Assembly (NCBI GenBank): GCA_038824665.1
Contig: JAWBBK010000005.1
Span: forward strand, 44,642-108,641
DNA length: 64,000 nucleotides
Reading direction: 5' to 3'
Source: Acidilobaceae archaeon
GTDB taxonomy: Archaea; Thermoproteota; Thermoprotei_A; Sulfolobales; Acidilobaceae
Shown piece after piece: positions 47,870 through 54,030 of the stretch; position 1 is the first letter of the stretch, and each line of letters begins with the position of its first letter. The translations under genes were made by a program, and so were the position numbers. The notes beneath the pieces were generated by a model. That model saw only the letters and a program-made list of their open reading frames with translations, did not search any database and had not been told where the DNA came from.

Positions 47870-48539
47870 CTATCGCGAAGAACCTAGTGGAATACCGGCG
47901 CTTTTAGAATCTCTAGGAACAATAGTCTTCAGAACGAGCCTAAAGATAGGAGATTATGTGCTACCGGGTGGGCTAGTGATTGAGAGAAAGACTGTGATGG
48001 ATTTCATGAACTCCCTCTTTGACGGAAGGCTTTTTGAGCAAGCCTCTAGACTTTCAGAGTCCTACGAGACGATAATCTACATAATAGAAGGAGACGTGAG
48101 AGACTTCAGGCTTTTCCAAAACAGATTGAAGCAAGTCTTCGGCGCTATGGCTACTTTAATTTTAGATTTTGACGCTCGTTTGCTTTTCAGCTCTAGCGCA
48201 AGAGAAACTGCATATCTGATAGAAGCCTTAGCTAGAAGAGCTTCTGAGGAGAGAGAGACTAAAGCAACGGTCGTTCACAAGAAGCCTAAGCTTTCCTCTA
48301 TTAGAGACTGGCAACTCTACATAGTTGGATCGCTTCCAGGAATAGGTCCGAGGTTGGCTGAACGACTGCTCGAGCAGTTCAAAACCGTTGAAGGAGTTTT
48401 CACAGCGAGCTTAGCAGAACTTCAAAGAGTTGTCGGAGAGAGCAGAGCAGAGAAGATCAAAACCGTCTTAAAGGCTCCTTACGATAAGTTTGAGAAAAAG
48501 TCTCTAGATCTTACAGACTTCCTGGAAGGCGAGGATTGA
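47823..48539 (+). CDS. xpf: Crenarchaeal XPF/ERCC4 structure-specific nuclease
   Basis: D.RE, GDY, ERKT..DF..S..DGRLFEQ motifs and HhH LPGIG. Confidence 0.92.
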   Translation: MRERDLSERKPRVYADYREEPSGIPALLESLGTIVFRTSLKIGDYVLPGGLVIERKTVMDFMNSLFDGRLFEQASRLSESYETIIYIIEGDVRDFRLFQNRLKQVFGAMATLILDFDARLLFSSSARETAYLIEALARRASEERETKATVVHKKPKLSSIRDWQLYIVGSLPGIGPRLAERLLEQFKTVEGVFTASLAELQRVVGESRAEKIKTVLKAPYDKFEKKSLDLTDFLEGED

Positions 48540-48768
48540 GTTCTCGTAGAGCTGAGTACATAGCGTAAACTAGATAGGTGTATGAATTGAAAACTGCTCT
48601 CACCTTGCTGAAGTCTTTAGCCTCAAATCTTAAGCATACACAATCATTCTCGACCGAGACCTCGATCTTTGCCTTAGAGGGAGCGGGCTGATTCACTTCA
48701 GCCAGGAGGCTTTCATAAAGAGGCTTAGCGTAATCTCTTACGCACAGCCTCATCTCTACTCTTATCAA
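48511..48768 (-). CDS. pcc1: KEOPS subunit Pcc1
   Basis: Size and EAKDFSKVRAVFNSY motif; lies next to prefoldin beta. Confidence 0.75.
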   Translation of the reverse strand: MIRVEMRLCVRDYAKPLYESLLAEVNQPAPSKAKIEVSVENDCVCLRFEAKDFSKVRAVFNSYTYLVYAMYSALRELNPRLPGSL

Positions 48769-49054
48769 TAGGGCTCAACCTCGCTCTTTCTTCAAAGACT
48801 TTAAACGCTATCTCCAAAGATTCTTCTAAGACGCTTTCTAGAGCTTCTCTAGAGGTAGTCAGACCTTCAGCTTGTATCGCAGCCTCTAAGACTTTAGTTC
48901 CCTCTTTCCTTTCAAGCTTCAATATCAAGTATACTCTGCTTGACCTTGACCCCAAGACCTTTTCTAAATGTCTTCTTGCTTGTTTTTCTGCCTCTAGGAG
49001 AGCCTCTATAAACAGTTCTTCTTCTTTATCCTCCTGTAGCCGCTGTTCTGCCAC
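48725..49054 (-). CDS. Hypothetical protein (DUF3194-like)
   Basis: Acidic small protein between prefoldin beta and pcc1. Confidence 0.55.
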   Translation of the reverse strand: MAEQRLQEDKEEELFIEALLEAEKQARRHLEKVLGSRSSRVYLILKLERKEGTKVLEAAIQAEGLTTSREALESVLEESLEIAFKVFEERARLSPIDKSRDEAVRKRLR

Positions 49055-49391
49055 CTAACAACGACCTCAACTCTCCAGCCAACCTGTCGACCTCTTTTTT
49101 CAAATACTCCTCTTGGGTCTTTACAGCCTTTAACCTTATCTCAAGCTCTTCTTTTTTGTTTTTCAGCTCGTCTACAAGAACGTTTTTACTAGTCCGTACC
49201 ATAATGTGACCTACGATTTTGTATAGCTCCACATCGTCCGGTAGCTCGGAAACTCTGCTGAGGACTTCGTCGAGCTCAGAGATCGTTGCTTCTAAAAGAG
49301 ATCTCTCTTGAGCTACAGTAGCTAGAGTGTCTTGGAGCTTGACATACTTAGTGTATTTAGCTTCGACCTCCGGAGGTAGCCTCTCAACCAT
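49026..49391 (-). CDS. pfdB: Prefoldin beta subunit
   Basis: LPPEV, coiled coils flanking the LYKIVGHIMV hairpin. Confidence 0.9.
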   Translation of the reverse strand: MVERLPPEVEAKYTKYVKLQDTLATVAQERSLLEATISELDEVLSRVSELPDDVELYKIVGHIMVRTSKNVLVDELKNKKEELEIRLKAVKTQEEYLKKEVDRLAGELRSLLGGRTAATGG

Positions 49392-49461: not shown

Positions 49462-49787
49462 GAGAGGCCGCAGCCATAACCCGCCTTCAGTACTTTCGGC
49501 GGCATTTGACTCGGCGGCTTCTCGGAGAGGCTCGCGCGCCTCTCATAGCCTCTCCGCCTTGCTCACCCGGGGTCGGCCGTTTCACCGCATCTCTCAGCTT
49601 CCATCCGCTGGTTTCTGTCCTCTCGTTGCCGAGAGGACCTCGCAGCATCATCGACATCGCTGAGAGCCGTTTCGTTTCTGTGCCGTTGCCGCGGGTATCA
49701 CCCGCACCCCTTACGGGGTCCGGGGGCGCGGTGAGGGCGGTGTGTCCTCAGGCTCTTCAGCCCGTGAGCCGCCGGCTGCGGCCTCCT
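49462..49787 (-). ncRNA. rnpB: RNase P RNA (type A-like) with a deviant P4
   Basis: P1 GAGGCCGCAGCC/GGCTGCGGCCTC, CR-II CACAGAAAC, CR-III GGTGAAACGGC, GAGCAAG, and CR-V ACTGAAGGCGGGTTA pairing with CCGCC of CR-I. Confidence 0.88.
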
Positions 49788-50092
49788 TTGTCATAAGAGC
49801 TCTAGAAACTTATTATAGCTATGTTCGTTCTCTGAGCGTTCATCTACGTCTTGAACTCTTCGCCTAGTCAGCACAAGCTCTAACGCTTATGCGAATTCAA
49901 GGTGATAGGGAAAACCCAACAGCACGAAGTTCCTGTCAACTTCAGTTCAACTTCAGTCTCGAACGACTTTCTTCCATAGTTCTAAAGGCTCAGCTCGAAA
50001 CAAAGTTAGATATAAAGTTTATAAGTATCCTCTCAAAGCGACAAAAAAGAAAACAGACCGCTAACGGAACTCTATAGTTGTAGGGGTCGGAA

Positions 50093-53922: not shown

Positions 53923-54030
53923 TGGTCCCGCCGGGGGGATTCGAACCCCCGACCCCCCGGTGTCTGAGAGACACCGGGTTTTTCGCCCGTCTCACTACAG
54001 CCGGGCGCTCTACCGCTGAGCTACGGCGGG
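53923..54030 (-). tRNA. tRNA-Tyr(GTA) with a 33-nt intron at 37/38 (53962-53994), CCA encoded
   Basis: CCCGCCG acceptor stem; CCCGG-CT-GTA-G^A-CCGGG; relaxed bulge-helix-bulge with GAGAC/GTCTC helix. Confidence 0.93.

Follow-up and report, generated by a model that had tools for sequence, protein, structure and literature searches.

The RNase P RNA gene (rnpB) found in the 64,000-nucleotide stretch of Acidilobaceae archaeon DNA analyzed here (the window) very probably specifies a functional catalytic RNA for a ribonucleoprotein form of RNase P, in which the register of P4 and its single bulge are kept, A and U are interchangeable at the bulge throughout the order to which the host belongs, and one small clade carries C66.U360 together with U349. 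Comparison of the gene with its relatives supports, at the level of sequence, the reading of a naturally variant active site which is still under selection.

A search with Infernal matched the Rfam model RF00373 to the minus strand of the window at 49465-49784, with a score of 164.9 bits (gathering score 84) and an E value of 4.4e-47. The match spans the whole model (1-288 of 288), and the gene was identified as that of a full-length archaeal-type RNase P RNA. It was the single match across the host genome (1.10 Mb, 10 contigs, 82.9% complete), and the bounds proposed earlier, 49462-49787, agree with it to within 3 nt at each end. The features of the gene are as follows.

49465..49784, minus strand: rnpB, full length, archaeal type (RF00373, 164.9 bits).
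49736..49749, minus strand: CR-I, GAGGACACACCGCC, with C66 (49744) and the bulged A69 (49741), from the sequence and the Infernal alignment.
49736-49744, minus strand: 5' strand of P4, inside CR-I, from the sequence and the alignment.
49477..49491, minus strand: CR-V, ACUGAAGGCGGGUUA, with U349 (49489), from the sequence and the Infernal alignment.
49478-49485, minus strand: 3' strand of P4, inside CR-V, from the sequence and the alignment.
49810..49817, minus strand: TATAATAA, a TATA-like element 26-33 nt ahead of the 5' end of the Rfam match, from direct reading of the sequence.

The TATA-like element is a candidate archaeal promoter for rnpB. The same strand carries, immediately downstream of rnpB (48511-49391, minus), a prefoldin subunit gene (PF01920, 73.8 bits), an open reading frame of 109 aa which has no family, and a Pcc1/KEOPS homolog (PF09341, 29.2 bits). 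A 96-aa open reading frame lies antisense within the G+C-rich rnpB (49506-49796, plus strand) and could be annotated by a gene caller; it is almost certainly not a gene. Elsewhere in the window a tRNA gene (53926-54030, minus strand; Rfam tRNA, 60.7 bits) contains 36 additional nt in the region of the anticodon loop, presumably an intron.

In the window RNA, CR-I reads GAGGACACACC and CR-V reads ACUGAA. When the RNA was aligned to RF00373 with Infernal, CR-I was GAGGACACACCGCC against the consensus GAGGAAAgUCCcCC and CR-V was ACUGAAGGCGGGUUA against the consensus ACAGAAGGgGGcUUA, and the departures first noted for these two regions proved to be exact. They are A66C, U69A and A349U, which correspond to plus-strand positions 49744, 49741 and 49489, respectively, in the E. 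coli numbering as we take it to apply, U69 being the bulged U. The bulge at 49741 is thus A rather than U, the letter which the literature describes as conserved and which forms no part of the Rfam threshold. Chen and Pace are said to have included A66 in the universal core in 1997; position 66 of the window RNA, at 49744, is C, unlike that A. A fourth departure, G68C, is offset by G358, and C68 is the normal letter both in the order (141/142 RNAs) and elsewhere in the phylum (79/100). The remaining core letters G63, G64, A65, C70, A347, C348, A351, A352, U360 and A361, together with CR-II and CR-III, are as expected. P1, CR-II and CR-III had been described as intact, and this was borne out: P1 pairs, and ACAGAAACGA (CR-II) and UGAAACGG (CR-III) fit the consensus. 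The mapping of A67, A351 and A352 in PMC12710915 agrees with the E. coli numbering used here.

For comparison, RF00373 was matched in 29 of 31 relatives and then in 137 of 151 genomes of the order. The order set comprised 142 full-length RNAs, one per genome, after removal of partial matches (G056, G075 and G117) and weak second matches (G057 and G099). In the phylum sample 124 of 151 genomes gave a match, 20 of them from the same order, and the set from outside the order comprised 100 RNAs of 99 genomes; the partial match of G163 and four matches below 30 bits (G184, G191, G226 and G288) were removed, and the RNAs of G261 (64.5 bits, below the cut-off) and G235 (truncated by the end of its contig) were kept.

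All 146 aligned order RNAs were free of gaps in CR-I and CR-V, and G63, G64, A65, A347, C348, A351, A352, U360 and A361 were identical in 146/146. Within P4 the pairs 67-359, 70-357, 72-355, 73-354 and 74-353 covary across the 146 RNAs, 67-359 being A-U in 122 rows and G-C in 24. Because this covariation lies on either side of the bulge, the register of the helix is fixed, and one nucleotide is left unpaired between 68-358 and 70-357. Three RNAs from outside the order, belonging to two other families (L215 of G230; L245 and L246 of G240 and G233), have a fully complementary P4 with no bulge, the Infernal deletions falling at the column of the bulged U; the CR-II block, too, is absent from those of G240 and G233 (family f34; 98 and 86 bits). 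In another family (f23) no RF00373 match was obtained in 9 of 13 genomes, and the matches in the complete genomes G184, G191, G226 and G288 were very weak (22-28 bits, 139-191 nt), a pattern consistent with a strongly reduced type of RNase P RNA which is barely seen by RF00373.

The letters found at the three variant positions were distributed as follows.

Bulge 69: A in 66 and U in 76 of the order RNAs (n = 142); U in 97, A in 0 and no bulge in 3 of those from the rest of the phylum (n = 100).
Position 349: A in 126, U in 14 and C in 2 of the order RNAs (n = 142); A in 99 and G in 1 of those from the rest of the phylum (n = 100).
Position 66: A in 139 and C in 3 of the order RNAs (n = 142); A in 100 of those from the rest of the phylum (n = 100).

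The original prediction had treated all three changes as substitutions at normally invariant sites. This survey of relatives bears it out for A66C (3/142), which is truly rare and belongs to one small clade; U69A (66/142) and A349U (14/142) are typical of the order and already common in crenarchaeal rnpB. The A bulge was found in 9 of the 13 families of the order, and at the level of genera 21 were all-A, 37 all-U and 3 mixed.

A maximum-likelihood tree of the 146 RNAs was constructed with columns 66, 69 and 349 removed; it is an RNA gene tree and not a species tree. On this tree the bulge letter changed 18 times, at least 8 of these changes being forced by well-supported branches, and position 349 changed 9 times. 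Eight of the nine changes at 349 fell on branches reconstructed as having an A bulge, which represent 44% of the tree length (binomial P 0.008, calculated post hoc and on a gene tree). An independent-pairs test of 349 against 69 gave 6 pairs and a median p of 0.5, and is not a powered one because the changes at 349 sit inside A-bulge clades. These data suggest that an A at the bulge may conditionally relax position 349. A strictly reciprocal covariation of U69A and A349U was ruled out, as 51 of the 66 A-bulge RNAs retain A349. Of the two readings first offered for this RNA, a naturally rewired active site was thus the better one, without the strict covariation that had been attached to it.

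The occurrence of a natural A at this position has to be set against the published work. Four papers (PMC3488217, PMC10966300, PMC11143913, PMC1874661) describe the P4 bulged U as universal or strictly conserved and give its O4 as a ligand in the inner sphere of the catalytic metal M1. A "universally conserved uridine" at the P4 bulge is named in PMC6565675 and PMC10966300, the former also giving the bulged U as an inner-sphere ligand of catalytic Mg2+. Three engineered mutants have been described. The E. coli U69A enzyme has a kc approximately 5-fold lower for the RNA alone and approximately 10-fold lower for the holoenzyme, with binding unchanged (PMC11221534); T. maritima U52C shows an approximately 10-fold loss, the authors stating that the U "is not irreplaceable" (PMC3488217); and the activity of the M. 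jannaschii U42A holoenzyme is "greatly diminished" (PMC6565675), so that A at the bulge does carry a cost in some contexts. Full-text searches gave no account of a naturally occurring A at this position, or of C66, although older archaeal comparative papers or supplementary alignments may contain one, and a literature search for contacts of A66 or A349 gave nothing.

One way of reconciling the natural A with the M. jannaschii defect would be conversion of the bulged A in the RNA, for example by deamination to inosine, whose O6 would stand in for the O4 of U and preserve the carbonyl ligand. This is chemically plausible, but no editing enzyme or data point that way, and the E. coli U69A enzyme is only 5-10-fold down without any editing (PMC11221534); we consider such a conversion very unlikely.

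C66 was present in three of the 142 order RNAs, namely those of the window, of a genome of the same genus (G001) and of a sister genus (G007). A sequence pattern which left position 349 free was run against 185,579 species representatives and identified C66 in 6 genome records, with record titles of Acidilobaceae, Desulfurococcaceae, Sulfolobales and Thermoprotei metagenome-assembled genomes; the pattern also gave 8 metagenome contigs. In total, 7 genomes and 8 metagenome contigs have C66, all on one branch, and A69 and U349 accompany it in 15/15 sequences (the window included), with one origin. The RNAs of the seven genomes are full-length rnpB products of 154-179 bits and are 87% identical. 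In the 146-RNA gene tree C66 occupies one side of a branch (SH-aLRT 92) and represents one change. The rows nearest to this clade (genus g11) have A66/A69/A349, which places the changes at both 66 and 349 on the stem branch of the clade; no intermediate between A66/A349 and C66/U349 was found in the 146-RNA tree.

The helices of the seven C66 RNAs have double compensatory changes at 32 of 100 pairs predicted by RNAalifold. Within P4 all seven RNAs keep 7 of 8 standard pairs, and compensatory swaps were seen at 72-355 (G-C to A-U) and 74-353 (C-G to U-A). Only 66-360 is C.U (7/7), a pair which is A-U in 139/146 order RNAs and consists of A and U in all 100 RNAs elsewhere in the phylum. The one further clade-specific change at conserved columns was at nt 53/220, an ordinary swap of C-G to A-U in P5, and besides this swap and U349 no change was found which could compensate for the C66.U360 mismatch. 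G350 was considered as a Watson-Crick partner for C66 and was ruled out, position 350 being A in L251, L255, L257 and L258.

As had been proposed, the genome of the window was searched for the protein subunits Rpp21, Rpp29, Rpp30 and Pop5; all four genes are intact, and L7Ae was found as well. All matches are above the Pfam cut-offs, in open frames without stops:

Rpp29: PF01868, 60.9 bits, open frame of 112 aa.
Rpp21: PF04032, 60.1 bits, open frame of 113 aa.
Pop5: PF01900, 61.8 bits, open frame of 168 aa.
Rpp30: PF01876, 50.5 bits, open frame of 231 aa.
L7Ae: PF01248, 115.8 bits, two matches of 132 and 113 aa.

The protein-only enzyme HARP (PF08745, PIN_5) was not found in the genome of the window (G000), which is 82.9% complete, so that the miss is no proof of absence, nor was PF08745 found in G001 of the same genus (single contig, 89%), in G007 of the sister genus (96%) or in G010. 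The same search was positive in G023 (245.8 bits), the RNA of which has A69 and U349, and over the cut-off in 3 control genomes. A search for PRORP (PF16953) gave 0 matches in the genome of the window, and none in the control genomes either. Across the order HARP was over the cut-off in 43/151 genomes. Among the 137 genomes with both kinds of data it occurred in 7 of the 66 with an A bulge and in 28 of the 71 with a U bulge, and in the family of the window (f1) in 0/14 A-bulge and 6/7 U-bulge genomes. The Fisher P of 1.5e-4 for this association is overstated since relatives are not independent, and the inverse association of HARP with the A bulge may simply follow phylogeny.

These results bear on the second reading first offered, in which rnpB is decaying or sidelined under relaxed selection while HARP or another protein-only RNase P processes the tRNAs. 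The presence of HARP in the order, including a genome with A69 and U349, and the incompleteness of the genome of the window would allow it. HARP was, however, not found in G000, G001 or G007, and it is rarer in genomes with an A bulge, both in the family and order-wide, which is the opposite of what relaxation driven by HARP predicts. Furthermore, the helices of the C66 clade have been kept through compensatory changes, the remaining core letters are invariant (146/146), and the genes for the protein subunits are all intact. Relaxed selection is therefore highly improbable, and the proposal that HARP had released this RNA from selection was abandoned. Judged from its sequence, the rnpB of the window is not decaying, and its helices are under continued selection.

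The source of the window being a metagenome-assembled genome, sequencing, assembly or binning artefacts might have produced the variant letters, but identical letters were present in contigs of two further samples, in six other genome records and in eight metagenome contigs which share C66/A69/U349, and for practical purposes this explanation is refuted. The Logan contigs of run X1 (the possible source) and of X2, from another sample, span both CR-I and CR-V, no difference being listed in either region, and the Logan contig of X3 (a different study) covers CR-V, unchanged. It had been recommended that the bases be confirmed in reads; the check was carried out on these assembled contigs (X1, X2 and X3) rather than on raw reads, and consensus bases were not seen.

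The naturally variant but selected active site can be put in mechanistic terms. The window RNA, assembled with Pop5, Rpp30, Rpp21, Rpp29 and L7Ae, would cleave the 5' leaders from pre-tRNAs; in the approximately 3% of metatranscriptome X10 (same study) that was read, 0 reads fell on rnpB. The bulged base is A in place of U, and the two probably serve equally across this hyperthermophile-rich order of Thermoproteota. In the small clade formed by the genus of the window and its nearest relatives, the closing P4 pair A66-U360 has further become C.U, and A349 has become U in the strand joining P2 to P4. Catalysis may then rest mainly on the geometry of the bulge and on the backbone phosphates of A67, G68, A351 and A352, the carbonyl of the bulged base being either unnecessary or substituted by a contact to M1 which is water-mediated, made through N7 or aided by protein. 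C66 and U349 probably remodel a tertiary contact at the end of P4 nearest to P1, where the P2-P4 joining strand runs along the helix. Positions 66, 360 and 349 are predicted to be neighbors in the fold: A351 and A352 are level with A67 (PMC12710915), and 349 is thus expected near 66 and 360.

More tentatively, and with some doubt on our part, the bulged base may be no required metal ligand in this order, with A freeing position 349 and one clade having replaced the closing pair (C66.U360 with U349), which would amount to a re-wired tertiary and metal-binding active site. If this is true, the RNAs are natural "mutants" which can be set against the universal-uridine model and compared head to head.

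The interest of these RNAs for the mechanism of RNase P lies mainly in the order-wide U/A polymorphism, which contradicts the "universal uridine" of the structural and mechanistic papers and supplies natural mutants. One and the same U-to-A change cripples the M. jannaschii enzyme and is inherited in 66 of the 142 sampled species of one order; in 59 of these 66 A-bulge genomes no protein-only back-up was found. The natural series U, A, and A with C66/U349 can be used to ask what the bulged base contributes and through which changes at second sites, or which proteins, it becomes dispensable.

Of the known systems, HARP (the Aquifex-type protein-only RNase P, PIN_5, PF08745) is present in many members of the order (43/151) and could in principle take the place of the RNA enzyme, but it was not found in the genome of the window and in the two nearest genomes and is negatively associated with the A bulge. 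The Pyrobaculum "type T" RNA is a reduced crenarchaeal RNase P RNA which lacks the specificity domain and in which the catalytic core is described as kept. Like the RNA described here, it is a lineage-specific crenarchaeal departure from the canonical RNase P RNA; in the present case, however, it is the core letters that are altered, within a complete architecture. In architecture the window RNA resembles that of the solved M. jannaschii holoenzyme (RF00373): it matches the model over its full length and has the P1-P4 pseudoknot, CR-I through CR-V and one bulged nucleotide in P4, and the five protein partners of that holoenzyme are the same five encoded in the genome of the window. Unlike the M. 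jannaschii RNA, the window RNA has an A bulge, C66, U349 and an outermost P4 pair which is C.U. The engineered E. coli U69A, T. maritima U52C and M. jannaschii U42A RNAs are altered at the same nucleotide position, two of them by the same U-to-A change. Those mutants are laboratory forms with reduced activity, whereas here the A is inherited and conserved in 66/142 genomes of the order.
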